From Minisyncoccia bacterium (lineage in GTDB: Bacteria > Patescibacteriota > Minisyncoccia > Phycocordibacterales > DATDWN01), in the NCBI GenBank assembly GCA_049297675.1, contig JBAQUS010000004.1, positions 13,188 through 77,187 of the forward strand: a DNA stretch of 64,000 bases, read 5' to 3'. The translations under genes were made by a program, and so were the position numbers. Shown piece by piece: positions 4,143 through 51,536 of this stretch. Position 1 is the stretch's first letter. Each line of letters starts with the position of its first letter. Under the pieces are notes generated by a model that worked only from the letters and a program-made list of their open reading frames with translations, searched no databases and was not told where the DNA came from.

Positions 4143-5330
4143 CTATATAAAAGTTAGTGCCTTACCAAGCTTTCCGGCTCTCCCTGTTCGTCCTATTCTA
4201 TGTATGTAGTCTTCATGCGTGCCCGGTACATCGAAGTTAATAACGTGGCTTACATTTGGAATGTCCAAGCCTCTTGCCGCCACGTCTGTTGCAACGAGTA
4301 CTTTAGTTTTGTTTGCTTTAAAATCATTTAGAGCTCTCTGTCTTTGAGTTTGGTTTTTATTTCCATGTATTGCTGTGGAAGAGACTCCTCTTTTTGAGAG
4401 CTCATCAGATAGTTTTTGAACACCATGTTTTGTTCTAGCAAAAACCAAAACCTTCTCGAATTCATCTTTTGAGAGTAATCCGTGTAACACATCAACTTTT
4501 GGCAAATCGTTAACCCGTACAACATCTTGATGAACATTTTTTGCAGTATCACCTGTTTTAACAGAAATTCTAACAGGATTATTCAAAAATTCAGAAATAA
4601 GTTTTTCGATCTCATTTGAGAGCGTTGCTGAAAAGAAAAGGGTTTGTCTTTCTTTTGGCATTTTAGACATAACAAGTCTCATGTCGTTTATAAAACCCAT
4701 GTCTAGCATCCTATCTGCTTCATCCAAAACCACAGATCTATAATTTGAAATATTCAGAACTCCTCTTTCCATTAAATCTTTTATTCTTCCGGGTGTACCG
4801 ATTACAAATTGATTGTGAAATCGTAGCTGTCTTATTTGCCCGCCAATAGGTACTCCTCCAACAGCACAAACCGAATGAATGCCTACATTGCCAACAAATC
4901 CTTTAAGTTCATCGTTTATCTGTACTGCCAGTTCACGTGTCGGAGCTATGATAAGAACCTGCTCATTGACACCGTTGTAAACTTTATGAATAAGCGGAAT
5001 AAGAAAAGCCGCAGTTTTGCCTGTACCTGTATTTGCAATTCCAACAATATCTCTGCCAGCTAAAATCTCTGGAATGGCACCGTCTTGAATAGGTGTAGGT
5101 GTTACGTAACCTTTTTTTATAATGTTACCCTTCAAACCTTCCACAATTTTAAAGTCAGCAAAACTATGCTTAGGCACGAATGGTATTTCCTTCGCTACTT
5201 CAACTTTAGTATTTATATATCTAGAGACATCAATGCTTTTTTGTGCAAATTTTCCTCTACCTCTACCTCTTCCATTAAATCGTGGACTGGAAAAACTTCC
5301 ACGTCCAAAATTTCCATTATTTCTGTACAT
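4143..5330 (-). CDS. DEAD-box ATP-dependent RNA helicase with an N-terminal RG-rich tail
   Basis: Motifs NTGTGKTAAF, PTRELA, LDEADRMLD, FSATL and HRIGRTGRAG. Confidence 0.9.
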   Translation of the reverse strand: MYRNNGNFGRGSFSSPRFNGRGRGRGKFAQKSIDVSRYINTKVEVAKEIPFVPKHSFADFKIVEGLKGNIIKKGYVTPTPIQDGAIPEILAGRDIVGIANTGTGKTAAFLIPLIHKVYNGVNEQVLIIAPTRELAVQINDELKGFVGNVGIHSVCAVGGVPIGGQIRQLRFHNQFVIGTPGRIKDLMERGVLNISNYRSVVLDEADRMLDMGFINDMRLVMSKMPKERQTLFFSATLSNEIEKLISEFLNNPVRISVKTGDTAKNVHQDVVRVNDLPKVDVLHGLLSKDEFEKVLVFARTKHGVQKLSDELSKRGVSSTAIHGNKNQTQRQRALNDFKANKTKVLVATDVAARGLDIPNVSHVINFDVPGTHEDYIHRIGRTGRAGKLGKALTFI

Positions 5331-5562
5331 ATTATTTAGCGAATACTCGCTATAACCCTGAGCGTTATATTAAAATCTTGCTCCGACTCAAGGGTTTTAT
5401 GAAGGTCTAGCCTTCGCAATTAGAGAGTTAAAAGTCCCTGAAACCACTGAGATATTAAGTTATCCCACCATTATAGCAAATCCACATATTTTTGTCAAAT
5501 AAGCCGAAATAAACGCTTTGTTAGTAAATAAAAATGATATAATTCTTAACATACTTTGAACT

Positions 5563-5688
5563 ATGAAACTCGACGAAAACACATGTTTTCTGGCGTATCT
5601 CGGAATGCGTGTAGCATGAGAGTTAAGGAAAATTTTCAGCAGAAAATTATTCCGGCACCATAAAATATGTGTTGAGTAAGAGTTTCAT
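5563..5688. ncRNA. Candidate structured RNA or repeat, copy A (related to 26279-26401)
   Basis: Closing stems atgaaactc/gagtttcat and aacacat/atgtgtt. The conserved centre ..tcggaa..gag.ttaaggaaaatttt cagcag aaaatta.. is shared with copy B. An extended -10-like tgatataat lies about 20 nt upstream. Confidence 0.3.
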
Positions 5689-5706: not shown

Positions 5707-6897
5707 ATGCAATTTGGTTATACCAACATCTTTCCCTACTTTGTAATCAGTGCCTTTATGGTCGCATTTTCTATTTTTGTGTTAAAAAGAAGTAGTTTTT
5801 TTCAAAAAATAGCCGAGGCTGAAGTATCTGAGAGATACGAAGCCTTGGATGGTTTACGTGGGTTTCTAGCTATCGGGGTTTTCTTTCAGCATGCTGTACA
5901 AAATTTCTCTTTCTTTCAAACTGGTGTTTGGGTAATCACCGACTCACGGTTTTACAGATTTTTAGGGGGAGAAGCTGTTATATTATTTTTCATTACCACA
6001 AGCTTTTTATATTGGACAAAACTGGTCTTAGTAAAAAGTCACGGTGAAAATCAAATGTTTCGGTTGTATCGAAGCCGGTTACTTAGATTAGCTCCTCTTT
6101 ATCTTTTTTCGGGACTATTGGTCAGTATTATTGCCCTGTATAATGTTGACTTCAGTATTATTTCAATAAGTGGTTTTTTTAGAGATATTTTTTATTGGCT
6201 AACACTTGGACTACACACCATCCAAAGCTTTAACGGCACTGACATAATACCTATCAATGCCGGAATACACTGGACACTAAGATACGAATGGGCATTTTAT
6301 CTCTTACTACCCCTAGTAGCATTTTTGATGAAAAATTCACTTGGTAAAATTGCTTCAGTTCTTATTTTGATAGGAATATTCTCCCTTCCCGACAGAGGAT
6401 ACTGGGCAATATTTCTTTTTGGCATTCTCTCCGCCTATATTGTAAGTTACTACCCATCTATTCCATGGTTTAAGAAAAATAATTGGTCAGCTTTGGTTCC
6501 ACTCGTGGGCCTGTTTCTTGTGTACTCAATAAATTACAAACCATACTCTTATGTTCAATATTTTATCAGTATGATAGTCTTTCTGTGTTTCGTATATGGC
6601 AACAATTTATTTGGATTGTTGAAAACGCCTTTCGCAAAATTTTTGAGCACTATTAGTTACAGTGTCTATCTTTTACATGGAATAGTCCTGTATATTGTTC
6701 TAAATATTGTAAACAAGTTCTATCCCGTAGCATCTCTTAGTCCGCTTCAGTATTGGACTGTCATTCTCTTTGCTGGAATAATAGTTATTGTTGTTTCGGC
6801 TCTATCTTATAGGTTCATTGAACACAGGTTCATAGAGAAAATCAAACTTGGTAAGAAAGGGTCGTCGCCTACACCTGTAATAGAAAAAGTTATTTGA
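5707..6897 (+). CDS. Acyltransferase family 3 integral membrane protein
   Basis: Multi-TM protein. The N-terminal LDGLRGFLAIGVFFQH motif is typical of acyltransferase_3. Confidence 0.7.
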   Translation: MQFGYTNIFPYFVISAFMVAFSIFVLKRSSFFQKIAEAEVSERYEALDGLRGFLAIGVFFQHAVQNFSFFQTGVWVITDSRFYRFLGGEAVILFFITTSFLYWTKLVLVKSHGENQMFRLYRSRLLRLAPLYLFSGLLVSIIALYNVDFSIISISGFFRDIFYWLTLGLHTIQSFNGTDIIPINAGIHWTLRYEWAFYLLLPLVAFLMKNSLGKIASVLILIGIFSLPDRGYWAIFLFGILSAYIVSYYPSIPWFKKNNWSALVPLVGLFLVYSINYKPYSYVQYFISMIVFLCFVYGNNLFGLLKTPFAKFLSTISYSVYLLHGIVLYIVLNIVNKFYPVASLSPLQYWTVILFAGIIVIVVSALSYRFIEHRFIEKIKLGKKGSSPTPVIEKVI

Positions 6898-11413: not shown

Positions 11414-11977
11414 TTATATATCTAAGTTAATTACTTTGTACTCATATTCCTTAAGAAATAAATTCTCTAAGTCTTGTGCTATATCTTTGAATACATCCTT
11501 ATATTCCTCTTTATAATGGGGAATGATTTTAAGAGGAAGAATACCAAGACCTTCCATTATTTGATTTGCACTTGGACTAAAGAAGAATCTACCAAATACA
11601 TTCGCACCAGCTGACTCTCCAGCTACGGTTTTTCCTTTCAATGAGTCTTTCAATTCAGGAAACTTTTTCAATGCCTCTAGTAGTTTTAGAGAAGTGCCAC
11701 CTTGAAAATATATAATATCCGCATATTTTACCTGTTCAATAAAAGACTCTTCATTCGCAACCTCAAAGTTAAGTTTCTCTTGGTGTTTATTTTGATTAAA
11801 TTCACCCTTAACTCTTTCTGTGGTGATATGTATTCGTTCAATATCTTTTGCAAAAGGAACAATCAAAACCTTTGCATTTTCAGGAGCATCTTTCAGGATT
11901 TCCTTATAGAAATCTGAATTATTCTCTTCTTGATTACCAGGAGTGAACCCCCCATGGAGAATAAACTTTGTTTTCAT
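11414..11977 (-). CDS. Peptidase S51 (dipeptidase E)-like protein
   Basis: FQGGTSLKLL ... GESAGANVF is the nucleophile-elbow pattern of the S51 family. Confidence 0.55.
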   Translation of the reverse strand: MKTKFILHGGFTPGNQEENNSDFYKEILKDAPENAKVLIVPFAKDIERIHITTERVKGEFNQNKHQEKLNFEVANEESFIEQVKYADIIYFQGGTSLKLLEALKKFPELKDSLKGKTVAGESAGANVFGRFFFSPSANQIMEGLGILPLKIIPHYKEEYKDVFKDIAQDLENLFLKEYEYKVINLDI

Positions 11978-12384: not shown

Positions 12385-12945
12385 TTATGATTTTAATCCG
12401 AATAATTTTTGACCCTCATCAAACAAATCGAGCATATCCTTCGAAAGAATGAGTGGGATAAACTTTTGTCTATCTTCTGGAGTAAGATTGTTTAGAGAAT
12501 CAATCTTCCAAGCTTCAAAGCCTATCGCTTTACCGGACTCGACCTGAAGGTCGCTGACCTTACCATCAAAAAGATAAACGTATTGTGAACGAATAGTATT
12601 ATTCGTAAGTTTTGTTACTTCATCAAAACTTTTCTTAAACATCTTTTTTACTAGCTTTAATTTTGAAAGATCTACATTAATTCCAGTTTCTTCTTTACAT
12701 TCTTTAACCGCTGTCTCATCATAAGTCATTTTTGGATCAACATGCCCACCAACAGTTGCATCAAGAAGATCTGGATATGTGTCTTTATCTTTTGCTCGAT
12801 GTTGGAAAACAATCTCCCTATCTGGAGTTATAAACCAAATATGAATTTCGCGATGCAATAATCCTTTTTCATGAACAGTTTTCCTTGGTTCAAGACCAAT
12901 TATTTCATCATTTTCATTTACAACTTCAAGCATTTCTTCTTTCAT
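12385..12945 (-). CDS. NUDIX hydrolase
   Basis: Nudix box GGHVDPKMTYDETAVKECKEETGI. Confidence 0.8.
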   Translation of the reverse strand: MKEEMLEVVNENDEIIGLEPRKTVHEKGLLHREIHIWFITPDREIVFQHRAKDKDTYPDLLDATVGGHVDPKMTYDETAVKECKEETGINVDLSKLKLVKKMFKKSFDEVTKLTNNTIRSQYVYLFDGKVSDLQVESGKAIGFEAWKIDSLNNLTPEDRQKFIPLILSKDMLDLFDEGQKLFGLKS

Positions 12946-12960
12946 ATTTAGTATAATAAC

Positions 12961-12992
12961 AAAAAATCACCGAGTTGTATCGGTGATTTTTT
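12961..12992. terminator. Bidirectional hairpin aaaaaatcaccga-gttgta-tcggtgatttttt
   Basis: 13-bp stem flanked by A and T runs, downstream of tRNA-Gln. A near-identical copy lies at 33933-33964. Confidence 0.6.
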
Positions 12993-13085
12993 GTCTTGAA
13001 TACTGCACTCAGCAGGTATGCTATGTCGGAATAGGTACTTGAGCCATTTCGACCCTCCTCGGAGTCCGAAACTATCTCAAGCTGG

Positions 13086-13156
13086 CTGGGGGGGAAGGAA
13101 TCGGACCTTCATTAGAAGCTTCAAAGGCTCCTGTCCTACCATTAGACGACCCCCCA
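13086..13156 (-). tRNA. tRNA-Gln (anticodon TTG)
   Basis: Hand-folded cloverleaf: TGGGGGG/CCCCCCA acceptor (U1-A72), anticodon arm GGAGC-CTTTGAA-GCTTC, T arm GAAGG-TCCGATT-CCTTC. CCA is encoded after the discriminator. Confidence 0.85.
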
Positions 13157-13266
13157 AATTTCTAGAATCAGGAAATCGGTCACAAATAATTTTCTGATGA
13201 AAATTTTCGCGACCCCGCCTCCTTCGTCTTCACTCAGTCCGGCCTTGCAAAAACATAACATGTTTT

Positions 13267-13319
13267 CTCACCCCTCTAAAGGCTTCAAAGGCCTCTGTTC
13301 TAGCGTGGGGCGTCTCCCA
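13267..13319 (-). pseudogene. Degenerate tRNA-Gln-like fragment
   Basis: The minus strand reads TGGGAGAC...GAGGC-CTTTGAA-GCCTT. The anticodon arm and 5' acceptor resemble the adjacent tRNA-Gln, but there is no foldable T arm or 3' acceptor. Confidence 0.35.
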
Positions 13320-13435
13320 ATATGCAATACAGTAACACTTTTTTTTGTCATCCTCAACTATTAGTCTAATCCAATTCACAATTACATACAAATATAAATT
13401 GATTAAACTTTAACTACTAATTAATTTACTTTGCT

Positions 13436-13473
13436 ATACACTTAACTTATGCTATAGCATAAGTTAAGTGTAT
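13436..13473. promoter_or_regulatory. 38-nt perfect palindrome atacacttaacttatgcta|tagcataagttaagtgtat
   Basis: Verified base by base. It lies 26 nt downstream of the PaaX-like stop and is related to the repeat at 14082-14131. Confidence 0.5.
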
Positions 13474-13498
13474 GTAGTCTTAGTATAGTATTTTAAGT

Positions 13499-14071
13499 TC
13501 AATCGAGAGAAAGAGAAAATAATTTTCTAATTCTCTTATCACCTTCGATAGAATCTGCAATTATGTAAAGTAGATCCTTCCCTATTTTGAAATCAGCTTT
13601 CAGTAAATTAATAAAGTCCTCACAATCGTAAGGGTAAATCCAGACACTATCTTGTAATCTCAGAAAACCAACACTACTAAGAGTCAACCTGACCTTGTTT
13701 CTAAGAATTTTTCTTGTTTCGGGAATATCAAAAATGAGCATTCTCCATCTTTTATCCCATTTCTTTGGTTTGCTAATTTTCCAATCCCTTATTTCCATGC
13801 CTTCTAAATATTTTAGTCCCTTTTCAGTTATTCTTATTAACCCGTTCTCACGTCCTAAAAATCCATTTTGTAGCAATTTATCACGAGATCTAGCCATTAC
13901 TTCTCTCTGCCTCTTTATCGGCTTAAAACCTGCTTTCTCTAGATACTGAACGGCATTAGGAGCAAGCAGTGCGAGACTGACATACCCCGCTAACTTTACT
14001 GAGGTTAGTATTATTTTTTTGAGATCATTTCTTGCCTTCCTTTTTCTTGATTTATTCTCTATATCCCCCAT
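13499..14071 (-). CDS. PaaX-like transcriptional regulator (wHTH + PaaX C-terminal-type domain)
   Basis: WDKRWRMLIFDIPETRKILRNKVRLTLSSVGFLRLQDSVWIYP is the characteristic PaaX-family segment. Confidence 0.55.
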   Translation of the reverse strand: MGDIENKSRKRKARNDLKKIILTSVKLAGYVSLALLAPNAVQYLEKAGFKPIKRQREVMARSRDKLLQNGFLGRENGLIRITEKGLKYLEGMEIRDWKISKPKKWDKRWRMLIFDIPETRKILRNKVRLTLSSVGFLRLQDSVWIYPYDCEDFINLLKADFKIGKDLLYIIADSIEGDKRIRKLFSLSLD

Positions 14072-14081
14072 TATTCGAATA

Positions 14082-14131
14082 TATCATATACACTTAACTA
14101 GTGCTATAGCACTGATTAAGTGTATATGATA
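14082..14131. promoter_or_regulatory. 50-nt inverted repeat (two mismatched pairs) immediately upstream of the PaaX-like gene
   Basis: tatcatatacacttaactagtgctat|atagcactgattaagtgtatatgata. It shares the atacacttaa arms and the gctatagc centre with 13436-13473. Confidence 0.5.
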
Positions 14132-14280
14132 GTTACGTAATATGCGTTAGTGTGTCTAATTCGTGTGCTAATATGTTTGTCTAGGACTATCAATAATATA
14201 TTATGAATCTATAATCAGTTTATTTATTCTGCTATTATTACAAATGTTACTAATCCTTCGTAGAATTCAAGAAAACGATA

Positions 14281-19165: not shown

Positions 19166-19230
19166 GTGACTAATTTCAAATTTTAATGAGTGTTTTTTAG
19201 AAATTAAAAATTAGAAATTAGAAATTTAGA

Positions 19231-20908: not shown

Positions 20909-21763
20909 ATGATAATTAAGAACCTACCAAGAGAAGACTTTCCGCCCTTACTCCTCCAAATCAACGACCCGCCGAAGTCCTTGAGAATCGTCGGAGAATT
21001 ACCTAAAACCGAAAAATACTTGGCAGTGGTCGGCTCAAGAAAATACAGTGAGTATGGCAAAAATGTTTGTGAAAAACTTATCGAGGGACTTTCTGGATAC
21101 TCTATTACAATAGTATCTGGCTTGGCTCTTGGTATTGATTCAATCGGACACAGGTCGGCGATAAGAGCGGGACTCCCAACAATCGCTATCCCAGGGTCAG
21201 GTTTAGCAGAAGAAGTCCTGTATCCACACAGTCATAAAAATTTAGCAAAAGAGATCGTTGAGAAAGGCGGATGTTTGCTTTCTGAATTCCCTGATACTTA
21301 TCCATCTCTACCAAAAAATTTTCCTGAAAGAAACAGGATCATTGCTGGAATGTCACATGCTACCCTGGTTATTGAAGCGGAACTACAATCAGGTACACTC
21401 ATCACATCCAAACTAGCCACAGAATATAACAGGGACGTCTTTACAGTTCCAAATTCCATTTTTTCCAAAACATCTGAAGGTCCACACATGCTCCTGCGTC
21501 TTGGTGCAACACCAATAACACAGTCAGCAGATATTGTTTCAGCACTTGGGCTAACTCCCCACGATAACTTATTTCAAAAGAGAGATTATAAAAATTGTTC
21601 ATCTGATGAACATGAAGTCATTTCACTACTTTCTGAACCGTTTTCCCGCGATGAAATAATTCGTAAACTAGAAAAGCCTGTTTACGTAACTCAGACCATA
21701 CTAGCCACAATGGAGATCAAAGGACTAATAGAGGAAACAATGGGAGAAATACACTTAAAATAA
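20909..21763 (+). CDS. dprA: DNA-processing protein DprA (Smf)
   Basis: VVGSRKYSEYG ... SGLALGIDSIGH ... ERNRIIAG. Confidence 0.85.
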   Translation: MIIKNLPREDFPPLLLQINDPPKSLRIVGELPKTEKYLAVVGSRKYSEYGKNVCEKLIEGLSGYSITIVSGLALGIDSIGHRSAIRAGLPTIAIPGSGLAEEVLYPHSHKNLAKEIVEKGGCLLSEFPDTYPSLPKNFPERNRIIAGMSHATLVIEAELQSGTLITSKLATEYNRDVFTVPNSIFSKTSEGPHMLLRLGATPITQSADIVSALGLTPHDNLFQKRDYKNCSSDEHEVISLLSEPFSRDEIIRKLEKPVYVTQTILATMEIKGLIEETMGEIHLK

Positions 21764-21803
21764 ATTTCTAATTAACATAATTTCTAATTTCTAAATAAAA
21801 ACA

Positions 21804-22154
21804 ATGAACAACAACTCAAAATATGATCTCGAAGAGAGGACTGCAAAGTTTGGAGAAAATATAATAGTATTTTGTAAAGACTTGCCTAAAAATGAAATAA
21901 CCAAACCCTTAATCAATCAACTAATAAAATGTGGCACCAGTGTTGGTGCAAATTATTGCGAAGCAGACGATGCAGAGAGTAAAGCTGATTTTAAACATAA
22001 AATTGGAATTTGTAAAAAAGAAGCAAGAGAATCAAAACATTTCTTAAGAATGGTGGTTACAGCAGCACCAGAAACTAAATCGAGTGCAACAAAACTTTGG
22101 TTAGAGGCAAAAGAAATAAACTTAATTTTTAATTCGATATACAAAAAGTGCTAA
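21804..22154 (+). CDS. Four-helix-bundle protein (23S rRNA intervening-sequence / Avd family)
   Basis: LINQLIKCGTSVGANYCEADDAESKADFKHKIGICKKEARESKHFL is the family signature. Confidence 0.7.
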   Translation: MNNNSKYDLEERTAKFGENIIVFCKDLPKNEITKPLINQLIKCGTSVGANYCEADDAESKADFKHKIGICKKEARESKHFLRMVVTAAPETKSSATKLWLEAKEINLIFNSIYKKC

Positions 22155-22266
22155 TTGAGTATTGTGACTTATTTAGAAATTAGGTTAATTAGAAATTAGA
22201 AATTTAAATATAAATTTGCTTTTTATAATATTTTTCTGTAATACTTAGTAAACAAAATAAAATAGT

Positions 22267-24549: not shown

Positions 24550-25953
24550 GTGAATGATCTAAAAGAAATAACCTCTTTGATGCTAAATCCGACGGAGAAT
24601 GATATTTCTCTTGTCGAAAAAGCCTTTAGTTTTGCTAAAAAGGCTCATGAAGGTAGTATGAGAAAAAGTGGTGAACCTTATTTTAACCATGTTTTTGGCA
24701 CCGCGAAAAATATTGCTGAGATTGGCATGGGAGCTACCACAATAGCTTCTGGACTTTTGCATGACACTATTGAGGACACAAAAGTAACCGAGGAGGAAAT
24801 CGAGAGAGAATTCGGAAGTGAGATATTGTTCCTAGTTGAAGGTGTAACCAAGCTCGGTAAATTGAAATATCACGGTACTGAGAGATATAACGAGAGTCTA
24901 AGAAAGCTTTTTGTGGCAACTTCAAAAGATATTAGGGTTCTTATCATAAAACTCTGTGACAGGCTTAATAATATGCAAACTCTTTCTGCCATTCCGAAGG
25001 AGAAACAAATTCGTATTGCTAAAGAAACTCTTGAGATATATGCACCTATCGCCTACCGGCTGGGCATAAAGAAACTCCAGAGAGATCTAGAGGACACTTC
25101 TTTCGGCTACGTATATCCAAAAGAATATGAGGAAATAAAAAAGATTTTGAATGTAAAGAAGAACGAAGTCGAGAAACATCTTGATAAATTTCAAAAGTCA
25201 TTAAAAAAGGAGTTGGCAAAAAACGATATTACAGATTTTAAGATTGATTACAGAGTAAAAAGCCTATACTCACTTTATAAAAAATTACAAAAATACAAAT
25301 GGAATGTTGAATCAGTTTACGATATTTCAGCCATTCGCATAACTGTTCCAGAGATTTCCGATTGTTATAGAGTTTTAGGAGTAGTTCACGGATCATGGAG
25401 ACCACTTCCTGAGAGAATAAAAGACTACATTGCATCCCCTAAGCTAAACGGGTATAGATCGATACACACGACTATTTTCACAGGAGATGGTGGAATTATA
25501 GAGGTCCAGATCCGAACTGAGGAGATGCATAAGGAAGCGGAGTACGGTATCGCTTCTCATTTATCGTACAAGCAAGGAGGAAAATCCGCCACTGGCTGGA
25601 TAAAAGACTTGATAGAATATCAAAAAGAAGCTGGCGACGAATTCATTGAAAACATAAAGACTGACTTTTTCGAGGAGAGAATTTTTATTTTCACCCCCAT
25701 AGGAGACGTCATGGACCTACCCAAAGGCTCATCAGTTATAGACTTTGCCTATGCTGTTCACACTGATATTGGAGACCACATGTCGGGGGCAAAAATAAAC
25801 GGTAAATTTGTGGCAATCACTACCACGCTTCAAAACGGCGACAGGGTTGAGATAGAAACCAAAAAATCCGCCAAGCCAAGCTCCAAGTGGCTAGAGTTCT
25901 GCAAGACTACCGTTGCCCGTCGAAAAATCCAACATTCACTCGAGAGAAAATAA
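24550..25953 (+). CDS. rel: RelA/SpoT-homologue (p)ppGpp synthetase/hydrolase (HD + synthetase + TGS)
   Basis: GTG start. HD domain LLHDTIEDT, synthetase region GYRSIHTTI, and a TGS-like C-terminus. Confidence 0.85.
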   Translation: MNDLKEITSLMLNPTENDISLVEKAFSFAKKAHEGSMRKSGEPYFNHVFGTAKNIAEIGMGATTIASGLLHDTIEDTKVTEEEIEREFGSEILFLVEGVTKLGKLKYHGTERYNESLRKLFVATSKDIRVLIIKLCDRLNNMQTLSAIPKEKQIRIAKETLEIYAPIAYRLGIKKLQRDLEDTSFGYVYPKEYEEIKKILNVKKNEVEKHLDKFQKSLKKELAKNDITDFKIDYRVKSLYSLYKKLQKYKWNVESVYDISAIRITVPEISDCYRVLGVVHGSWRPLPERIKDYIASPKLNGYRSIHTTIFTGDGGIIEVQIRTEEMHKEAEYGIASHLSYKQGGKSATGWIKDLIEYQKEAGDEFIENIKTDFFEERIFIFTPIGDVMDLPKGSSVIDFAYAVHTDIGDHMSGAKINGKFVAITTTLQNGDRVEIETKKSAKPSSKWLEFCKTTVARRKIQHSLERK

Positions 25954-25961
25954 TCACTACA

Positions 25962-26042
25962 CAAAATTTCTTTCTCACTATTTATTTTTCCAGACCGCAT
26001 AAATCCTTGGTAGGATTTTGCTTAGCCTCGGCACTCTAAGAG
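25962..26042 (+). repeat. Conserved ~82-nt post-stop element, copy X1
   Basis: caaaatttctttctcac...tttttccagaccgcataaa-[hairpin]-ttgcttagcctcg...tctaaga. About four-fifths identical to 63919-64000 by hand alignment. Confidence 0.55.
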
Positions 26043-26278
26043 ACTCATCAAAGGATTACCTTTGTGATTCTCTAAAGTGCCTGCGGAGTCTTCCGAAGAG
26101 TTCACACTGACTACTGCGTCGGATATAAGACTTCGCATGCTAAACCTCCCTGTTCTTGCAAAAGGATACCAATCAAATCTAGTTTTGTCAAAAAATATTT
26201 TACAAATAAATAAACGAAGACTCCCATCGCTTGTTCACAATTGTGGCAAAAAATTCTCACAATGAGAACATGATGAAT

Positions 26279-26401
26279 AAAATCTCGTTGACTTGTAATT
26301 TTTTCAGAATATGTCGGAAGCCGAAGAGACCGAGACTTAAAGGAAAATTTCAGCAGAAATTTATCATGGTTCTGAAAAAATTATAAGGAAAAAGAGATTT
26401 T
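26279..26401. ncRNA. Candidate structured RNA or repeat, copy B (related to 5563-5688)
   Basis: Outer stems aaaatctc/gagatttt and ttgtaattttttcagaa/ttctgaaaaaattataa. The centre tcggaagcc..gagacttaaaggaaaattt cagcag aaatttatc is conserved with copy A. Confidence 0.3.
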
Positions 26402-26414
26402 GTAATTGAAGTTT

Positions 26415-27461
26415 TTATATGCTGAAGTTTTTGATGGAGTATAATTCTTCATCACTGCTATTTTCATCTCGAGACTTCTCTAGAGGTGTTCGGTCGTCCA
26501 TTTCCTTTAGGTCGCTTATAGTAAGGTCAACTGCAGTTGAGTCGTTAATATAGTTTGGAACATTTTCGTTTTTTGGGGGAATGGGATTTTCTACAATATG
26601 TTTATCTAACATTTCTGTGCCAGTCATTTTTTGATTGGATTTTATAAGTTCGAGAATTTGATGGAGGTCTTCGTTTGAGAAATAATCTATAAGAATTTTC
26701 CCGCCATTTTCTCTTTTCTCGATCGAAACCCTTGTTCCTAGTGTCTCTGTTAGTCTCTCTTCCATCTCCTGCGTTTCAGGATCTAGTGTAGCTCCCTTCT
26801 TTTTTATTTTGTCATAGGCAATCCTCCTACCAATTGCTTCGGTTTCCCTAACGGTCAATTTTTTATACATTATTTCCTTAAACAGTGTTTGTTGTTCGTC
26901 TGGTCTGTCACCCAGCATCATGAGGGGTCTTGCATGACCCTCTGTGATCTTGCCTTGAGAGATAGCATCTAGAATCTCCTTGGGAAGGGCTAAGAGCCTT
27001 ACGGAGTTTGAAACATATTCACGGCTCTTTCCAACTTTCTTGCCAATCTCATGGTGTTTAAAACCAAACTCATCAATAAGTCTTTGAAAAGCTCTGGCTC
27101 TATCAACAGGATTTAGATCCTCTCTTTGGATATTTTCTATTATTGCTAACTCAAGCTTCAATAAATCATTTTCTTCATCCCCTACTTTTATAAGTGCAGG
27201 CACTTGAGAAAGCCCGGCTATCTTCGATGCTCGAAGTCGTCTTTCGCCCGCTATGAGTTCATACTGAACATCGAGTCCTCCATCTTCTTTTTGAATCTCC
27301 TTTCGAGTGACAACGAGTGCTTGCAAAACTCCGTACTGCCTTATTGAATCTGCAAGAGACTGGAGTTCAGCTTCGTTAAATTCCCTTCTAGGTTGAAAGG
27401 GGTTAGGAATTATTTTGTCTACATCTATCCAGAAAATTGAATCCTTATAAAACTGGGACAT
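26415..27461 (-). CDS. parB: ParB/Spo0J partition protein
   Basis: LIAGERRLRASK ParB box, an HTH region and an acidic C-terminal extension. Confidence 0.85.
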   Translation of the reverse strand: MSQFYKDSIFWIDVDKIIPNPFQPRREFNEAELQSLADSIRQYGVLQALVVTRKEIQKEDGGLDVQYELIAGERRLRASKIAGLSQVPALIKVGDEENDLLKLELAIIENIQREDLNPVDRARAFQRLIDEFGFKHHEIGKKVGKSREYVSNSVRLLALPKEILDAISQGKITEGHARPLMMLGDRPDEQQTLFKEIMYKKLTVRETEAIGRRIAYDKIKKKGATLDPETQEMEERLTETLGTRVSIEKRENGGKILIDYFSNEDLHQILELIKSNQKMTGTEMLDKHIVENPIPPKNENVPNYINDSTAVDLTISDLKEMDDRTPLEKSRDENSSDEELYSIKNFSI

Positions 27462-33401: not shown

Positions 33402-33917
33402 TCATTTTAAGATCTTGTAATGTAGCTGGATCGTATCCTCATTAAGTTTGTTAACTTCCATAAGTTTTAGATCGTATTCAAAATCAGCCTCAGAAAAAAC
33501 TTTTATTCCTTTTCCAAATATCAATGGTTCAACATCTAAATAAATCTCATCTATTAAGTTTTCTTTAAGAAAAGAACTATTTAATTGACCTCCTCCAGCC
33601 ACAAACGCTGTTTTAAAGTTTTTTGTTTCTAATAAATTCAATATATCTTTTGGTGACTTTTTTGTAATCAAAACATTGTCACCCCATTTATTTTCTATCT
33701 CCTGGTTAGATACTACAATATTCAAAGCATCTGGAAATGGAAAATATCCATACTTAGAAGTTTCTATATATGTATTTTTACCCATTATTGTATTTCCTGC
33801 TGATTTACTATGTTCGTAAAATCCTTTCAAGTCTTCTTCTTAAGTAAACTCTGAATTACCATTTTCTCTAGCAATATAACCATTAGCAGATATTCCCATA
33901 TAGATAATTGTCTTCAT
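33402..33917 (-). pseudogene. RibD-C/dihydrofolate-reductase-like gene interrupted by an in-frame TAA
   Basis: My translation from the ATG at 33915-33917 gives MKTIIYMGISANGYIARENGNSEFT-TAA(33840-33842)-EEDLKGFYEHS... This is in frame with the 142-aa ORF, whose first codon is TTG. Confidence 0.6.
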
Positions 33918-33932
33918 AATCATCATAATAAC

Positions 33933-33964
33933 AAAAAATCACTGATTTGTATCGGTGATTTTTT
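33933..33964. terminator. Bidirectional hairpin aaaaaatcactga-tttgta-tcggtgatttttt
   Basis: Second copy of the 12961-12992 hairpin, within a shared ~50-nt block, downstream of tRNA-Trp. Confidence 0.6.
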
Positions 33965-34030
33965 GTCTCAAATATTGCTTTACTTTCTCGCAAAAACGTC
34001 ACATTGACGCGTCTCGTGCGACGCTCGACT

Positions 34031-45203: not shown

Positions 45204-45490
45204 ATAAGGAACTAAAGGGTTCTGAATGCGAACCCAAGCGGAACGCCCGAAGGGCGTGCCAAGGATTTTCGCCTGATTCTGCAAGAGAATTCGGGAATTT
45301 TGGTGTGCAAGCGTGCAAGGTTTTTTCGTCGAGACGCAGGTTCGAGCCAAAGATTTCTTTGGCATAGACCTTTTTAGTAAAAAGATCTGAATCAGAAGCG
45401 ATTCTGTCCAATGATTCCGCGTCTTTTAGCCATTGTTGGAAAGGTGCGAGCCAATCATTCTACTTGTGTGAAAGAGAGGTCATTTCTCAT

Positions 45491-46277
45491 CTGTCAAACA
45501 TCCGATGTTTGACAGTAAGTTAGGGGTAGATTATTACCGAAAATGTTAAAACTTTTTATACTTCAAAAGTTTTGGTGTCAGCTTTTACCCCGCTATTTTT
45601 TACAAATTTATAATATTCATATTTATCCTCAAATTGGTCTAATACTACTTCCCTTTTTAATATTTCCTTCCAACGATTTTCTGTAACGTAATCCTGATAG
45701 CTAGACCACTCATATTTTTCTGGATTATTACTCCAATGTGAAAGCTCTTTTGGATTTAAATGAACATACGCAGATAAATGTAGTAGTTGTTCATTACTTT
45801 CAACATGAACTGCTTTATACGGACCTTCAAAAAGATGCCCCGAAATTTTATATTTAGTATTGAAGTATTTTGTATACGAGTTAAGTACACGTTGCATATA
45901 TTTCCCAGTTCCACCTTCTTCATTTTCACGAACTATTAGATGAAAATGGTTAGTCATCATCGCAAAAGAAACTAGGTCAACGTATCTTTTCGAAATTATC
46001 TTTTCGTAATCATCACTGTTAATGTCAAACATCCGATGTTTGACATAATTCGAGATCATTCTTGAAACTTGAGGAAAAATAACATTTGCTTGAAAGTATA
46101 AAATGAGAAATAAAAATCTAATTCTATCTCTATCATCCTTGAAGATGATTTTCTTCCCAACTCCCCGATTATATATATGATAGTGTTCCCCAATTTCAAT
46201 ATTATCTCTTCTCATAACCTCTCATCCTACATGGACAACTATCCATCTGTCAAACATCGGATGTTTGACAGATGGAT
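45491..46277 (-). mobile_element. RAYT/IS200-like unit 1: Y1 gene bracketed by copies of the palindrome tgtcaaacatc-N-gatgtttgaca
   Basis: Palindromes at 45491-45515 (12+c+12), 46022-46046 (inside the CDS) and 46241-46277 (18+g+18). The centre base is complemented in the third copy. Confidence 0.6.
45556..46215 (-). CDS. HUH/Y1 tyrosine transposase-like protein (REP-associated, IS200-like domain)
   Basis: HYHIYNRGVGK, HUH motif TNHFHLIV and the catalytic-Tyr region LSAYVHLNP. Confidence 0.75.
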   Translation of the reverse strand: MRRDNIEIGEHYHIYNRGVGKKIIFKDDRDRIRFLFLILYFQANVIFPQVSRMISNYVKHRMFDINSDDYEKIISKRYVDLVSFAMMTNHFHLIVRENEEGGTGKYMQRVLNSYTKYFNTKYKISGHLFEGPYKAVHVESNEQLLHLSAYVHLNPKELSHWSNNPEKYEWSSYQDYVTENRWKEILKREVVLDQFEDKYEYYKFVKNSGVKADTKTFEV

Positions 46278-46367
46278 AAGATCGATTATTAGAAAGGCTT
46301 GTGATTTTTTTAAAATCGATCTTGTTGCAAATAACGGCTTAATGGTGGGGGTTTTTTGACGACACCC

Positions 46368-46401
46368 TTGACTTGACTTTTGGATTTAATTGTGATAGAA
46401 T
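46368..46401 (+). promoter_or_regulatory. Consensus sigma70-type promoter of the GC-rich cassette
   Basis: TTGACTTGACT (overlapping -35 boxes), then a 17-nt spacer, then TAGAAT (46396-46401) preceded by tgtga. Confidence 0.5.
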
Positions 46402-46499
46402 GGTGAGCAGAACGGGAGCGGCAATTCTTGCCCCTTTCGTCGCTCCTTGACACTCTAGTTTTTAGTTTACAAGCGCTTAAATGCGCAGAAGAGGTTAGC

Positions 46500-48038
46500 A
46501 TGTTTTACACTATCGCAATTTCCGTTCTCGTTGCAGTGACAATCTCGGTCCTGATCGTCGTCGGTTGGCTTATCTTCCGTGTCGTACAGACACGGAGGAG
46601 GACACCAGTCATTCATGATTGGGCGCGGAGGGATGATAGTCGCGAGACGACACCCTCCCCGACTCCTACCACGACATCCGGAATTGATGTCGACCTCACA
46701 CTGAATCCTCCCCGCCATACTCCGAAAGGAAATAGCGGAAGAGAACCCGAACCGTTGCCTCCATGTAAATGGAAAAAAGGCACGTTTCGTATCATCTACT
46801 GGGCGGTAATAATTCCGCTCGGAATGATATCTGTCTTCGTTCTGGAGTGGGGTATCCTATCGGGTCTGCCACTCACGTGGAATACCCTGTTGGAATTCAA
46901 CGCAACTTCAGTTGGGCTGACCCTTGTTGTTCTCTGGGTAGCCTACTTCTTGGACACATTCAAGATCGTCAAGTTCAATGAACTCGGCGGTCGTGTGGTA
47001 CTTGGTAGTTTCGAGTCCTACTCTGACGGGATAACTCTCGCACCGAGATGGATTACCGATCTGGTCAAGGTAACGAGAGCAACTGAAGAACTTGATCAAC
47101 CTCACAGTGACCCGTCAAAAATTTTCTGGGGAGACCTAAGCAAACTTCCAGACGGGAAAATCCCGGACGGTATGGTACTACCAATTCGTGTGCCATTCCT
47201 CCAGAGGTCAAGCGATGAAGACTTCGAAGTTCGCTGGCCACTTGAAACAGGAGAGGTCAAAACCAGAATTACAAAGGGCTATGACCTTCTTAGTGCAACG
47301 GATGCTCCTGTCGAGTATTCGATCGGAATCAGATTCATCGACATCCAACGTGTTATCGTTCGACTCAGGTCACTCAAAGCAGCCTACGACTTGGCAACAG
47401 ACTATGCAGAGACGCTCATAACGGGCACTTTGCAGAAAATGTCCGCTGCCGAAGCCCAAGTACTGAAACAGGAAATTTCAGTACATCTTGAGGAACAGAC
47501 GGACAACCGTGTTTTCCAATCGTACGGCTTCGTGATCGACTTCGTGACTTTGAAGTCAATCGGGACTTCGCACACAATCGCGGAATCGCGAGCGCAGGCG
47601 GCAGCAGCTGTCAACCTTGCGAATAAAACGGTTAGAGACGCAAAAGCTACAGCTAAGGCAACCGAACTTCAAGGTGCTTCTGTGGCTGGAGCTGAATTGG
47701 CACTACTCAACGCGAGGTCAGTAGGACTACGCAACATCGTCGACGCTGCGACTTCACGGTCAGGGGGAGTTGAACTCGCCAAAGCTATGGAAGCGGCACG
47801 CGCTATTCAGTTTGGCGCAGATTCGACAGTTGTTGTCCCAGGTGGAAACACTGGGGACGGTCTCGGACTCTTTGGCGCAGCGGTCGGTACAGCAATTAGT
47901 GCTTCGGCCGCACTTGGGAGAAAACCAGCTGGTGAAAAAGCTCTAACAGAGACCCAACCAGCACAACCAACAACTACTACAACACCCCCTGCACGTGGCG
48001 ACAGACGTGGCCATAAGAAAGGGGGTAAGAGGAGTTAG
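46500..48038 (+). CDS. Multi-TM SPFH/band-7 (prohibitin/HflK-like) domain protein with Ala-rich coiled C-terminus and basic P/T tail
   Basis: Start set at MFYTIAIS (GAGG 5 nt upstream). FKIVKFNELGGRVVLGSF ... YSIGIRFIDIQRVI ... YGFVIDFVTLKSIGTSHTIAESRAQAAAA fits the SPFH pattern. The DNA is GC-rich. Confidence 0.6.
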   Translation: MFYTIAISVLVAVTISVLIVVGWLIFRVVQTRRRTPVIHDWARRDDSRETTPSPTPTTTSGIDVDLTLNPPRHTPKGNSGREPEPLPPCKWKKGTFRIIYWAVIIPLGMISVFVLEWGILSGLPLTWNTLLEFNATSVGLTLVVLWVAYFLDTFKIVKFNELGGRVVLGSFESYSDGITLAPRWITDLVKVTRATEELDQPHSDPSKIFWGDLSKLPDGKIPDGMVLPIRVPFLQRSSDEDFEVRWPLETGEVKTRITKGYDLLSATDAPVEYSIGIRFIDIQRVIVRLRSLKAAYDLATDYAETLITGTLQKMSAAEAQVLKQEISVHLEEQTDNRVFQSYGFVIDFVTLKSIGTSHTIAESRAQAAAAVNLANKTVRDAKATAKATELQGASVAGAELALLNARSVGLRNIVDAATSRSGGVELAKAMEAARAIQFGADSTVVVPGGNTGDGLGLFGAAVGTAISASAALGRKPAGEKALTETQPAQPTTTTTPPARGDRRGHKKGGKRS

Positions 48039-48040
48039 TC

Positions 48041-49396
48041 ATGCCTATCGTCGCAATCGTTATCGTACTCCTCTTTCTCGTCTTCGGACGAAGGAAAGGA
48101 AACGATAGCAAATACATTCGAGAGTCAGAGGTCGTTGATACCAAGCCAAATGGTAAAACAGAGACGGAAAAACACACTCTGTGGTGGCACGTCGGCCACT
48201 ACAAACTCGTGTGGCTACAGCACTGGAGGAGGTCAACAACCCTCCGTGTCTCCGCCGGACTGCTTGCTTTCGGGCTGGGAGTCTGGATCTTCCCTCTAAC
48301 GAGGGAATGGTGGAGTTCGCAGTGGGTTAGCTTCGGCCTTTACCTAATTGCCGCTCTGGCCATTATCTGCCTTGGGTTCATGTTGGGCCCGGCGCAGAAA
48401 GTGCCGTTCGAGTACAGGCTCCGGCCTTTATTGCTCATCATTGGAATTGCGATCGCAGTCTACGGACTCGGTGCGAACACCAAGTTCGGTCAGAGCACCT
48501 GGTCGTGGATCGCCTCTCACTTCGGGAGAACAGATGGAAACATCGGTCTAACTCCAGAGGAGACAGCTGACCTACCGGACGGGTTCGTCGAGAGCGACAA
48601 TCCGAACCACTGGTCAAACCACGTCACCGATGAAAATCGTGATGTGGTCAACATGGTCCGGGCTGCCGTCCAGAGCGAACTTGTCCCAACCCATTGGGAC
48701 CTCGCCATGCAGATCTGCGGTATGGAATCGGCATGGTTTCGTCAGTTCGATGAGGACGGTAATGTTCTCAGAAACGTCAAAAACAATGACGGGTCAATCG
48801 ACTACGGAGTCTGTCAGATCAACTCCATATGGATGAAAAAGTCCAAGGAGTTGGGAGATGGTTTCCGGATCGACGGGCCGGCTGACGAAAACATTCGAAT
48901 GGCCATGTGGATCTGGACGAATCCAGAAACACGTGGGCCACGCGAGTGGACCGGTACGTACAACACAGCTCTTGCTGTTGTCCGCAATGCGCGGACAACG
49001 CCAGAGACTGTGAACGCACGTCGAACTCCAGAGAGGTCACCGGCTGAACAGGAGACTGTTCAGGCTGGGATCGCACTGGTCTCACAAACTGAGCCAATTC
49101 ACCAGCAACGCAACCCACAAAGAGAGGTGTCTGTCACAGCCATGTTTCCAGGATGGGTCACCGACAAGTCCTCCATGACCTGCGACCTCGAAGAGGACGC
49201 AGAAATCGAGGCGGTCGGTGAGCCTGGAATATTTTACTGGAGTGACACAAACTTCAGTACGAACATCCTAAAGCCTGGAGAAACTGCTTCACTTGCTGGA
49301 TTCAAATGCGTTGCAGTCAGATACTTTTCCCCAACGTTTGGGGGAAAACTGACTGAGGGTCAGAGCCCTTACGCAATCGTGAGACGATACAAATAA
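48041..49396 (+). CDS. Membrane-anchored lytic transglycosylase (SLT domain) with a C-terminal domain of unknown function
   Basis: Four to five N-terminal TMs. ICGMESAWFRQFDEDGNV ... DYGVCQINSIW contains the SLT catalytic E-S and the Q-I-N motif. AGAGGAG SD. The ATG lies 2 nt after the upstream stop. Confidence 0.7.
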   Translation: MPIVAIVIVLLFLVFGRRKGNDSKYIRESEVVDTKPNGKTETEKHTLWWHVGHYKLVWLQHWRRSTTLRVSAGLLAFGLGVWIFPLTREWWSSQWVSFGLYLIAALAIICLGFMLGPAQKVPFEYRLRPLLLIIGIAIAVYGLGANTKFGQSTWSWIASHFGRTDGNIGLTPEETADLPDGFVESDNPNHWSNHVTDENRDVVNMVRAAVQSELVPTHWDLAMQICGMESAWFRQFDEDGNVLRNVKNNDGSIDYGVCQINSIWMKKSKELGDGFRIDGPADENIRMAMWIWTNPETRGPREWTGTYNTALAVVRNARTTPETVNARRTPERSPAEQETVQAGIALVSQTEPIHQQRNPQREVSVTAMFPGWVTDKSSMTCDLEEDAEIEAVGEPGIFYWSDTNFSTNILKPGETASLAGFKCVAVRYFSPTFGGKLTEGQSPYAIVRRYK

Positions 49397-49430
49397 ACTA
49401 GAGTTAGAGAGGAGTACACATGTTCGCATG

Positions 49431-49466
49431 AGGCCGTTACCCGATAAGGGAACGGCCTCTTTTTAT
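49431..49466 (+). terminator. Rho-independent terminator of the GC-rich cassette
   Basis: aggccgtt...aacggcct stem followed by ctttttat. Confidence 0.6.
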
Positions 49467-49492
49467 GCATGATGATATATAAAATTTCTCTA

Positions 49493-49525
49493 CAGAAAAC
49501 CGCTCAAGTTGTGAGCGGTTTTCTG
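49493..49525. terminator. Bidirectional 14-bp hairpin cagaaaaccgctca-agttg-tgagcggttttctg
   Basis: Perfect arms, verified. It lies between the convergent cassette and the pilin operon. Confidence 0.6.
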
Positions 49526-49536
49526 TGACTAACTTG

Positions 49537-49827
49537 TTAATAGTTTCGTATTATAGCGTTGACTGCTGCGTTATTAGGTGCCACCCCGAAAGTGTTAAGG
49601 ACGAAGTGAACCAACCCATAAACCGAAAACATTATGACCATTCCCACTATTCCCCAGACCATGGAATCTCTGGACTCCTTTCTGGTATTTCCTTTATCGT
49701 CTGCATCAGAAGATAAAAACTTGATGGCCCCCCATACAAAGTACAGAAAGGCTATAGCAAACATGAGGAAAATCAATGGATTCAGTATAACGTTTGCTAC
49801 ATTACGTAGAAAAGGAACAATAGTCAT
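49537..49827 (-). CDS. VirB2/TrbC-like mini-pilin paralogue a (no signal peptide; possibly truncated)
   Basis: Core YFVWGAIKFLSSDADDKGNTRKESRDSMVWGIVGMV (TM-loop-TM). It lacks the leader present in the other six copies. Confidence 0.5.
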   Translation of the reverse strand: MTIVPFLRNVANVILNPLIFLMFAIAFLYFVWGAIKFLSSDADDKGNTRKESRDSMVWGIVGMVIMFSVYGLVHFVLNTFGVAPNNAAVNAIIRNY

Positions 49828-49852
49828 GTACTAGTTTCGTTAACTAGACTGA

Positions 49853-50206
49853 TTACAGACCTGTAACTGTTGGAACTGTACCAGTTGTGATGTTTTGAAC
49901 ACCAAATGTAGATTGTAACCATGCAACCAATCCGTAGATTGAGATCATGACTGCTATTGCAATCACACCCCAAATCATCTGGTTTCTACCTGCCTCCTGT
50001 GCCTTAGGATCCCCAGCTGAACGTAGGAATGTAACCAAGCCCCAGAAGAAGAACACTATCGCTAGACCGAAAACTATAGGGATAAGTGTTCTAACTGTTG
50101 TTGCAATGAAAGTAAGAAGTGCTTGCAAACCTGTTAAGTTTGGAGTCTGGGCGAAAGCCAAGACTGGAGCAAGAAAAGATCCTACTGAAATGACAATTTT
50201 TTTCAT
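49853..50206 (-). CDS. VirB2/TrbC-like mini-pilin paralogue b
   Basis: Leader ...PVLAFAQ. Core FFFWGLVTFLRSAGDPKAQEAGRNQMIWGVIAIAVM. Confidence 0.6.
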   Translation of the reverse strand: MKKIVISVGSFLAPVLAFAQTPNLTGLQALLTFIATTVRTLIPIVFGLAIVFFFWGLVTFLRSAGDPKAQEAGRNQMIWGVIAIAVMISIYGLVAWLQSTFGVQNITTGTVPTVTGL

Positions 50207-50311
50207 TTTTTTGTTAATATTACGATTAATAATGCTATTATAGTACTTTTTAAAAATAATGCAAGTCCTCGGTCAAATAGACTCTGTGGATTAGTTTACT
50301 TCCAGTTATAC

Positions 50312-50689: not shown

Positions 50690-50711
50690 AATAGTTAATG
50701 TTACAAAATTA

Positions 50712-51524: not shown

Positions 51525-51536
51525 TATTGATAAATT

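Follow-up and report, generated by a model that had tools for sequence, protein, structure and literature searches.

A candidate family of structured intergenic repeats found behind genes in Minisyncoccia

The analysis presented here points, with roughly even confidence, to an intergenic repeat family not described before, whose members are small, structured and non-coding and which occurs in a clade of Minisyncoccota (Parcubacteria/Paceibacteria, CPR). In the manner of bcr1, ERIC and Correia sequences, its members would behave as non-autonomous elements that come and go between genes, are co-transcribed with their neighbours and are under selection for a folded rod. The copies share one fold with covarying helices, are most conserved in their loops, are dispersed in multiple copies, prefer positions behind stop codons, and occupy different loci in related genomes. 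The family is new while its kind is known, as comparable structured interspersed repeat families exist elsewhere.

Patescibacteria/CPR have very small genomes, in which repeats and regulators are believed to be scarce. The presence of the element behind essential genes such as RSH, hisS, parB, ftsZ, serS and topA would mean either that such reduced genomes tolerate a persistent non-autonomous repeat, or that they rely on a shared RNA fold at the ends of genes. Either way, it offers a handle on how transcripts are ended, processed and stabilised in organisms that cannot be cultured alone.

Copies in the window and the architecture of the element

The window is the entire 64,000-nt stretch of DNA that was examined, and all coordinates count from its first letter. 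A repeat finder and alignment identified positions 25962-26041 and 63919-63998 as a direct repeat of 80 nt with 83% identity, in which CAAAATTTCTTTCTCAC (at 25962 and 63919), the 19-mer TTTTTCCAGACCGCATAAA (at 25985 and 63942) and TTGCTTAGCCTCG (at 26018 and 63975) are exact in both stretches. With up to three mismatches allowed, 0.05 matches to TTTTTCCAGACCGCATAAA are expected in the window by chance and three were found, the third of which (at 51299, with three mismatches) lies inside coding sequence and is a chance match. The similarity pointed out in an earlier note on this DNA is not due to chance. Each copy begins 8 nt past a stop codon, copy 1 behind an RSH gene (HD_4-RelA_SpoT-TGS; 24550-25953) and copy 2 behind a HisRS-like gene (62675-63910). 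Covariation of a small internal hairpin, here named P2, had also been proposed and is borne out: both arms change together, from AAATCC/GGATTT in copy 1 to AAAAGTT/AACTTTT in copy 2, and further complementary forms occur in other copies (TCG/CGA, TTGC/GCAA, AGTC/GACT, TCAC/GTGA and CTC/GAG).

The 82 nt first taken as the unit are only the 5' part of a larger element, as copy 1 extends to ~26094-26097 and full copies elsewhere measure 157-160 nt. The size types comprise a short type of ~125 nt, the full type of 157-160 nt, and copies with insertions that reach up to ~220 nt. In the common architecture, an A/U-rich outer stem (AAAUCUC/GAGAUUU) is followed by a conserved, asymmetric (7x6) internal loop, with CUUWYUCA opposite UYCRAC, and by a long second stem of freely varying sequence. 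This leads to a three-way junction with conserved joining strands, which bears P2, a short hairpin with the loop YUGSUR, and P3, a hairpin of highly variable length. The consensus, taken from L019 5908-6066, reads AAATCTC [TTTCTCA] CCAAACCTTTT [TCC] AGAC C CGCA TAAA - P2 - TTTTGC TTAG CCTCG - P3 - CTCCGG A GTCT [TCC] AAAAGGTTTGG [TTCGAC] GAGATTT. Its outer arms are complementary (AAATCTC...GAGATTT; CCAAACCTTTT...AAAAGGTTTGG), with conserved mismatched loops breaking up the pairing. The sequence of the second stem is quite different in L010, copy 3, copy 4 and L019 1105-1268, so that what is conserved looks like a structure rather than a terminal repeat; in L010 the stem is kept with a wholly different sequence (CCTAATTATGATTTT/AAAATCATAATTAGG), and P3 of this copy carries an insertion of ~90 nt. 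Copies of the long type are bordered by A-rich sequence on the 5' side and T-rich sequence on the 3' side, such as GTAAAAAATAAATCTC...GAGGTTTATTTTTTAC in L013.

When the covariance model R1 was searched against the whole window with filters off, four members were recovered and everything else scored at or below 21 bits. Copy 1, of long type A, occupies 25962-26097 on the plus strand and is matched by R1 at 25986-26097 (118.7 bits, E 4e-30), over model positions 24-135 only. On the same strand it consists of the 5' strands of the outer stem, internal loop and second stem (25962-25989), block A, TTTTTCCAGACCGCATAAA (25985-26003), hairpin P2 (25997-26021), block B, TTTTGCTTAGCCTCG (26016-26030), the long hairpin P3 (26030-26081) and block C, TGCGGAGTCTTCC (26082-26094). 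Beyond block C it diverges, and the 3' partner strands of the two outer stems are missing: its 3' outer arm has been lost. Copy 2, likewise of long type A, lies at 63919-64000 on the plus strand (R1 match 63943-64000; 61 bits with truncation handling, model positions 1-81), and just its 5' half, up to the start of P3, falls within the window. The model flagged it as cut on the 3' side, in agreement with the earlier observation that the window end interrupts it, and it is probably complete beyond base 64000.

The remaining two members are of the short type and match the full length of the model. Copy 3, with a minimal P3, lies at 26277-26401 on the minus strand (55.6 bits, E 6e-13), starts 13 nt behind the parB stop codon, scores 18.8 bits on the other strand and folds alone into the family architecture (z -5.2). 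It had been listed as a copy of a different element, a distinction that falls away now that it scores as the same family on the opposite strand. Copy 4, at 5562-5687 on the minus strand (49.3 bits, E 3e-11), sits in the divergent gap between a DEAD-box helicase gene (4143-5330, minus strand) and an acyltransferase gene (5707-6897, plus strand), and its minimum-energy fold is the family architecture (z -7.7).

RSH and parB (26415-27461, minus strand) are convergent, and the 461-nt gap between them is built wholly from repeat material, as had been suspected. Rather than one composite unit at 25962-26401, it holds two convergent copies, the first without its 3' outer arm, with a spacer of ~180 nt (26098-26276) between them that lies outside the family consensus. 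Two further hairpins had been proposed downstream of the first 82 nt. The one at ~26031-26082 is real, but it is the integral helix P3 of the element rather than additional structure. The other, at ~26083-26140, can be drawn by pairing TGCGGAGTCTT (26082-26092) with AAGACTTCGCA (26127-26137), but no other copy has this pairing, and it is not part of the family. Block-C-like fragments occur in the spacer in minus orientation (26127-26137 and 26211-26225). Its minus strand also carries a terminator-like hairpin with a T-run (26269-26248), a promoter-like site found by a promoter scan (26191-26163) and an SD (26150-26145). An ORF of 38 aa (26138-26022, minus strand) runs antisense into copy 1; despite the promoter-like site and SD it was rejected as a small protein gene, since its frame is lost where P3 covaries (L013 and L019, by eye).

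Public assemblies touch on copy 1 as well. Three Logan contigs with an identical parB all end at window position 26065, and a Logan contig with identical topA and RSH ends at 25991. If these contigs were built with 31-mers, as we assume, the two ends bracket the shared stretch as 25962-26094. The resulting assembly-graph breaks at 25962-25991 and 26065-26094, in three samples, suggest that at least one more near-identical copy exists in the same population, and the element would explain the recurrent assembly breaks in these metagenomes.

Fold, conservation and strand

Comparison of six copies with RNAalifold yielded 58 pairs, of which 19 are compensatory. Across 21 aligned rows, an alignment fitted to the model and thus biased toward structure, and which includes two opposite-strand rows, 93.7% of the cells are paired, compared with 36-54% when the 3' partners are slid by one to three columns; 51 of the 58 pairs change on both sides, and none of 500 shuffles reaches the observed values. 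The pairing test was also run on 12 rows. Single-sequence folds, which are independent of the model, gave the same architecture for copies 3 and 4, for L019 1105-1268 and for another seven copies, z ranging from -5 to -8.

Conserved bases concentrate in the loops, with 14 of 31 unpaired positions conserved at 90% or more as against 14 of 81 paired ones. At the RSH/parB site, the four-fold synonymous sites of the window are 23-31% identical to those of L013 and L021 (random expectation 27-29%), while the element is 71-79% identical; between L013 and L021 the corresponding values are 41-46% and 87%. This excess of identity over the flanking synonymous sites shows that the sequence of the element is constrained. 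Furthermore, exact 19-nt blocks are retained across genomes in which synonymous sites are saturated, a pattern that a function at the level of the host fits at least as well as selfish spread does.

The question of which strand folds is less simple. Among the 821 cells of the consensus helices, 758 are Watson-Crick, 11 G.U and 28 A.C, the remaining 24 being mismatches of other kinds. The A.C cells are spread over 16 pair columns and the G.U cells over nine, with several of the A.C cells located in a doubtful 2-bp helix of the internal loop. An A.C on the model strand is a G.U on the opposite strand, and in 17 of 17 copies it is the opposite strand that gives the more stable fold, with a margin of 5-16 kcal/mol; the loops of the model strand are pyrimidine-rich. 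Few wobble pairs and a better-folding opposite strand are not what a purely sense-strand RNA function predicts. Going by the orientation bias of 17:3, described below, it is the model strand that would be transcribed together with the upstream gene. Tandem-gene contexts leave little or no space for an antisense promoter, as for L019 1105-1268 ahead of mnmA, and inspection by eye found no promoter motif at a fixed distance on either side. These data fit a fold used on both strands under convergent transcription, a hairpin at the DNA level, or an RNA whose loops are pyrimidine-rich by chance.

Two uses of the sequence itself were considered and rejected. Pairing of CCAG in block A with CUGG in the P2 loop, as a loop-loop pseudoknot, does not hold up in copy 2 or L007. 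Stop-codon read-through or recoding was set aside because the frame in which the element follows the upstream stop varies: four copies share one frame and three another (by eye).

Occurrence, position and turnover among related genomes

Exact-word scans with 19-mers, conducted on a species-representative genome set and on JGI metagenomes, returned chance matches and seven distinct true copies, all in contigs of Minisyncoccia/Paceibacterota. These are L007 and L010 (from one Minisyncoccia MAG), L013 (the same as L017; a Paceibacterota MAG), L019, L021 (the same as L026), L024 and L027. In these further copies the similarity does not stop just past the hairpin but continues to ~160 nt and includes conserved unpaired blocks, which upholds the view in the earlier note that the stretches are more than a simple terminator. 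In addition, contigs around RSH homologues with 69-81% identity were fetched and searched with the model. R1 found further copies in L019, L024, L244, L245, L247 and L251; those in the last four include copies behind RSH, joined by copies that follow serS and an aminotransferase gene in L247 and topA in L245. Outside the window this amounts to ~16 more copies, mostly 0-16 nt behind a stop codon.

The position of the element relative to genes is strongly patterned. Of ~20 copies, 17 lie in sense orientation behind the stop codon of a gene; of the 16 among these with a measured distance, 14 start within 0-16 nt of the stop and two at 64 and 69 nt, and the seventeenth is L027. The L007 copy is antisense between two genes of the same strand, and copy 4 and L024 1-85 are situated in divergent promoter gaps. 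The element is found behind RSH in seven contigs from different genomes, and in L013, L021 and L247 a single copy fills the convergent gap between RSH and parB. L019 1105-1268 stops ~10 nt before mnmA, on the same strand. The neighbours of the copies are topA, RSH, parB, hisS, ftsZ, serS and similar genes, in conserved synteny.

The occupied loci differ between genomes. The 3' end of the HisRS gene has the element in the window and none in L024, where HisRS is 66% identical and only a small hairpin is seen, while the gap upstream of lepB carries the element in L024 and none in the window. Similarly, the element is present at the 3' ends of the serS, topA or aminotransferase genes in L247 or L245 and absent there in the window, and in L252 RSH and parB overlap and the element is missing. 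Thus presence and absence at orthologous loci vary across the window, L024, L245, L247 and L252. L244 is the closest relative found (RSH 81% identical), and its RSH copy is of the short type and resembles copy 4 of the window rather than copy 1. Decayed or partial copies, namely copy 1 and L024 5061-5217, also occur.

That related genomes are occupied at different loci makes a mobile or mobile-derived nature likely. The picture is one of a dispersed family with turnover, in which surviving copies keep the fold and the loop sequence. Inspection by eye of the flanks of nine full copies showed no target-site duplication or consistent TA ends, but inverted A- and T-tracts instead; as the exact ends of the element are uncertain, short duplications could escape such inspection. 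A Pfam search of 57 ORFs of the window gave no partner transposase with matching ends.

Known elements, rival explanations and possible role

Database comparisons assigned the element to no known class. With gathering thresholds, Rfam 15 reported only tRNAs for the whole window, and at E<=10 the hits for window positions 25900-26460 and for L019 5880-6100, the best full copy, were at chance level, led by StyR-44 with 15 bits against a gathering threshold of 54. The Rfam and Infernal check named in the earlier note therefore matched no family to the element, and a ribozyme, a tRNA-like element, SRP, 6S and other known RNAs were rejected, there being no Rfam signal for them. The ends of known insertion sequences, also raised in that note, gave no match. 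A phage or plasmid origin was discarded, as BLAST found no match in the phage or plasmid collections searched and word scans of viral contigs returned chance matches only. The guide-RNA end of an IS605 element encoding TnpB/IscB was dismissed because the downstream genes are parB and murB. A replication origin or terminus in the RSH/parB gap was likewise excluded, since GC skew tracks only the strand of the genes. In the literature on repeats or structured RNAs of Patescibacteria/Parcubacteria, no description of the element was found.

The bcr1 repeats of the Bacillus cereus group are ~155 bp long, form a closing stem with two stem-loops, show compensatory changes, are transcribed and have a non-conserved distribution; 5-bp direct repeats border them, and a part of the copies no longer has a stable structure (PMC3184786). 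The present element resembles them in size, in being non-coding, in the closing stem with two stem-loops, in compensatory changes, and in intergenic sites that vary among genomes. It differs in its host (Minisyncoccota rather than Bacillota), in having no direct repeats visible by eye, and in its conserved asymmetric loop and variable P3, and the two are likened by description. ERIC sequences are co-transcribed and have an orientation-dependent effect on mRNA stability that involves RNase E, and Correia RNA is cut by RNase III (PMC2229807). ERIC/IRU (127 bp) and the Correia/NEMIS elements of Neisseria are, like the present element, small imperfect intergenic palindromes, strongly conserved across species, that form long rods and have size variants with internal insertions; theirs lie in transcribed regions, and the rods form in the mRNA. 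Those elements possess terminal inverted repeats, TA termini and a TA duplication, whereas here the arms contain conserved mismatched loops, the second stem is free to vary, no TA duplication was seen, and the fold is a three-way junction instead of a simple rod. On these comparisons bcr1 would be the nearest analogue, functional rather than homologous, with ERIC and Correia next.

Two other systems share some traits with the element. REPs, as characterised in one source, are 20-40 nt long and bear a GTAG or CGTC tag (PMC3733652), and REPINs show long vertical persistence (bioRxiv 10.1101/2021.07.10.451892). REP/REPIN-RAYT systems are alike in being extragenic hairpin repeats near the 3' ends of genes, with Y1 transposase genes in the same genome. 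They are unlike in that the element is 125-220 nt long and has no tag, and in that a cognate RAYT is flanked by REPs while the Y1 genes of the window are flanked by other palindromes. The attC sites of integrons are located directly behind ORFs in a fixed orientation; in them an unpaired spacer divides the outer from the inner stem, the distal structure is variable, and one strand folds better. The element shares with them the position behind ORFs, the stem-spacer-stem layout and the strand asymmetry of folding; it lacks the core sites, no integrase was seen in the window, and its neighbours are essential housekeeping genes in place of cassettes.

In the reading given about even weight above, that of a non-autonomous repeat family, the element would come and go at intergenic sites in the course of evolution and would be transcribed within the neighbouring mRNA, most often in the 3' UTR or between cistrons. 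The folded rod would be the property under selection, and its likeliest role would be to define, protect or process the 3' ends of mRNAs, possibly as a barrier to 3'-exonucleases or as a substrate for a double-strand-specific RNase. Between convergent genes with flanking A- and T-tracts, as at RSH/parB, it could serve as a two-way terminator or insulator. A more tentative proposal is a new class of structured nucleic-acid signal specific to a CPR lineage, in which the loops of the three-way junction would be read by a dedicated factor, for example one acting in 3'-end formation or RNA decay or a new ssDNA recombinase, with selection maintaining it at each locus in place of decay as a selfish repeat, and the opposite strand as possibly the active one. 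It is rather doubtful that the element is a host-encoded structured RNA motif instead of a mobile element, whether as a 3'-UTR or intercistronic signal or as small RNAs, with loops recognised by a particular protein or RNA of these bacteria, for instance in lineage-specific 3'-end formation or decay. Conservation centred on loops within covarying helices, exact 19-nt blocks that outlast saturated synonymous divergence, and the fold shared by the deeply diverged paralogues of one genome (copies 1, 3 and 4) would all suit such a motif, as would its recurrence behind RSH in seven contigs of different genomes and the failure to find a transposase partner or target duplication. Yet the occupied loci vary widely among related genomes, and even at RSH the window and L244, the closest relative found, carry different subtypes. 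The existence of decayed or truncated copies (copy 1, L024 5061-5217), the three copies in the other orientation or in divergent promoter gaps, and the lack of preference for G.U on the sense strand also weigh against it.

The helices are nearly all Watson-Crick (758 of 821 cells) and the folding asymmetry between strands extends to 17 of 17 copies, which would accord with a folded single-stranded DNA substrate of which one strand is active, either REPIN-like and moved by HUH/Y1 enzymes of the IS200/RAYT type or an attC-like recombination site. The stem-spacer-stem layout recalls attC by analogy, REPINs likewise persist vertically (bioRxiv 10.1101/2021.07.10.451892), and the same genome encodes two Y1_Tnp proteins (IS200/RAYT-like; 45556-46215 and 54366-55043, identified with Pfam among 57 ORFs of the window). 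This explanation is nevertheless unlikely. Each Y1 gene is bracketed by its own perfect palindrome (TGTCAAACATCSGATGTTTGACA and TACTAGGGTAACCCTAGTA), unrelated to the element, which itself carries neither the REP tag GTAG/CGTC nor, at its outer stem in the alignment, the attC core RYYYAAC/GTTRRRY. Pfam detected no Phage_integrase among the scanned ORFs of the window, the flanking genes are housekeeping genes in conserved synteny instead of cassettes, and the opposite orientation of copies 1 and 3, only 180 nt apart, speaks against a replication-direction rule. Least probable is that the copies are ordinary intrinsic, possibly bidirectional, terminators that are alike merely through recent common origin. 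Their place directly behind stop codons, the A-rich 5' and T-rich 3' flanks of the long types, and the single copy that fills the convergent RSH/parB gap in L013, L021 and L247 are what recommend it. However, the similarity covers ~160 nt with conserved unpaired blocks, and the basal stem is weak, A/U-rich and set off by the 7x6 internal loop. Copy 4, L019 1105-1268 and L010 show no U-tract behind the outer stem, so termination cannot be the general role, and L019 1105-1268 ends ~10 nt before the next gene on the same strand. A scan for consensus terminators found no terminator-like site at copy 1 or copy 3, while normal short GC-stem terminators occur in the same genome (12959-12994 and 33931-33966 in the window) and copy 3 is followed by a canonical terminator hairpin of its own.

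The family, which no existing Rfam family matches, is a candidate for Rfam with good covariation support, and its covariance model can be used as a marker for the clade.

Y1_Tnp genes and a G+C-rich island

Two IS200/RAYT-like Y1_Tnp genes with 38% identity to one another are encoded on the reverse strand of the window, at 45556-46215 and 54366-55043, within 45488-46274 and 54341-55079, respectively. Each gene has a perfect palindrome on both of its sides, a different one per gene. The palindrome of the first gene, TGTCAAACATCSGATGTTTGACA, is found at 45492, 46023 and 46248, with the copy at 46023 located inside the ORF, and that of the second, TACTAGGGTAACCCTAGTA, is found at 54343 and 55053. 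Each gene with its palindromes resembles either an IS200-type unit in minimal form or a RAYT/REP pair, here in a CPR genome.

The stretch at 46000-52314 is a G+C-rich island (0.48 vs 0.36 elsewhere) and may be an acquired region. It encodes two large ORFs (46428-48038 and 48041-49396), for which there was no Pfam match, followed by six small tandem ORFs with T4SS-pilin/TrbC-like domains (49853-52314).

Repeats at tRNA genes and at RSH sites

Adjoining the tRNA-Gln gene, within 13160-13330, is the hairpin AATAATTTTCTGATGAAAATTTT. Its sequence is near P2, the short hairpin of the folded intergenic repeat (the element), in short-type copies such as that at 5562-5687(-). The covariance model built from element copies gave a match of 9.4 bits in this area, at 13185-13207, and the hairpin is followed by a tRNA-like fragment (13277-13323) that is 70% like 13113-13159. 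This area may be the remnant of an element copy. Separately, a 66-nt repeat occurs at 12941-13006 and 33913-33978 with 86% identity and includes the hairpin ACAAAAAATCACCG...CGGTGATTTTTTGT, a canonical two-way terminator; a tRNA gene (tRNA-Gln or tRNA-Trp) adjoins each copy.

In a more distant relative, a Zambryskibacteria contig (L249), the gap between the convergent RSH and parB genes is occupied by a rod-shaped palindrome of ~120 nt (11507-11640, z -7.7), which is unrelated to the element and stands in its place. The group as a whole may tend to have long palindromes in this gap. Downstream of the element copy behind RSH, the contigs of two other relatives, L244 (2430-2575) and L245 (about 11650-11675), share a further motif, GGAAAAGGCCTCGACG, which in L244 sits inside additional perfect palindromes and may represent another repeat family.

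Promoter-like sites and ORFs between inverted repeats

The reverse strand has a promoter-like site at 26191-26163 (TTGACA, 17 nt, TG-n-TATCCT), then a Shine-Dalgarno sequence, GGGAGG (26150-26145), and then a 38-aa ORF (26138-26022), which runs antisense through the element copy behind RSH (25962-26097(+)) and is not conserved in the other element copies. Within 5331-5498, a promoter that matches the consensus perfectly (TTGACA-17-TATAAT with TG; 5498-5470(-)) is separated by a leader of ~135 nt from the DEAD-box helicase gene (4143-5330); the leader may be a regulatory 5' UTR.

Two ORFs are flanked by inverted repeats. The 116-aa ORF of the 23S_rRNA_IVP family (21804-22154, within 21763-22197) has 25-nt inverted repeats, 96% complementary, on either side, and the TTAGAAATTAG-type motif of this locus also occurs at intergenic 19195-19226 and 61930-61961. 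The other, with a PaaX_M / Cas2-like domain (13499-14071(-), within 13420-14141), lies between 54-nt inverted repeats at 13420-13473 and 14088-14141.
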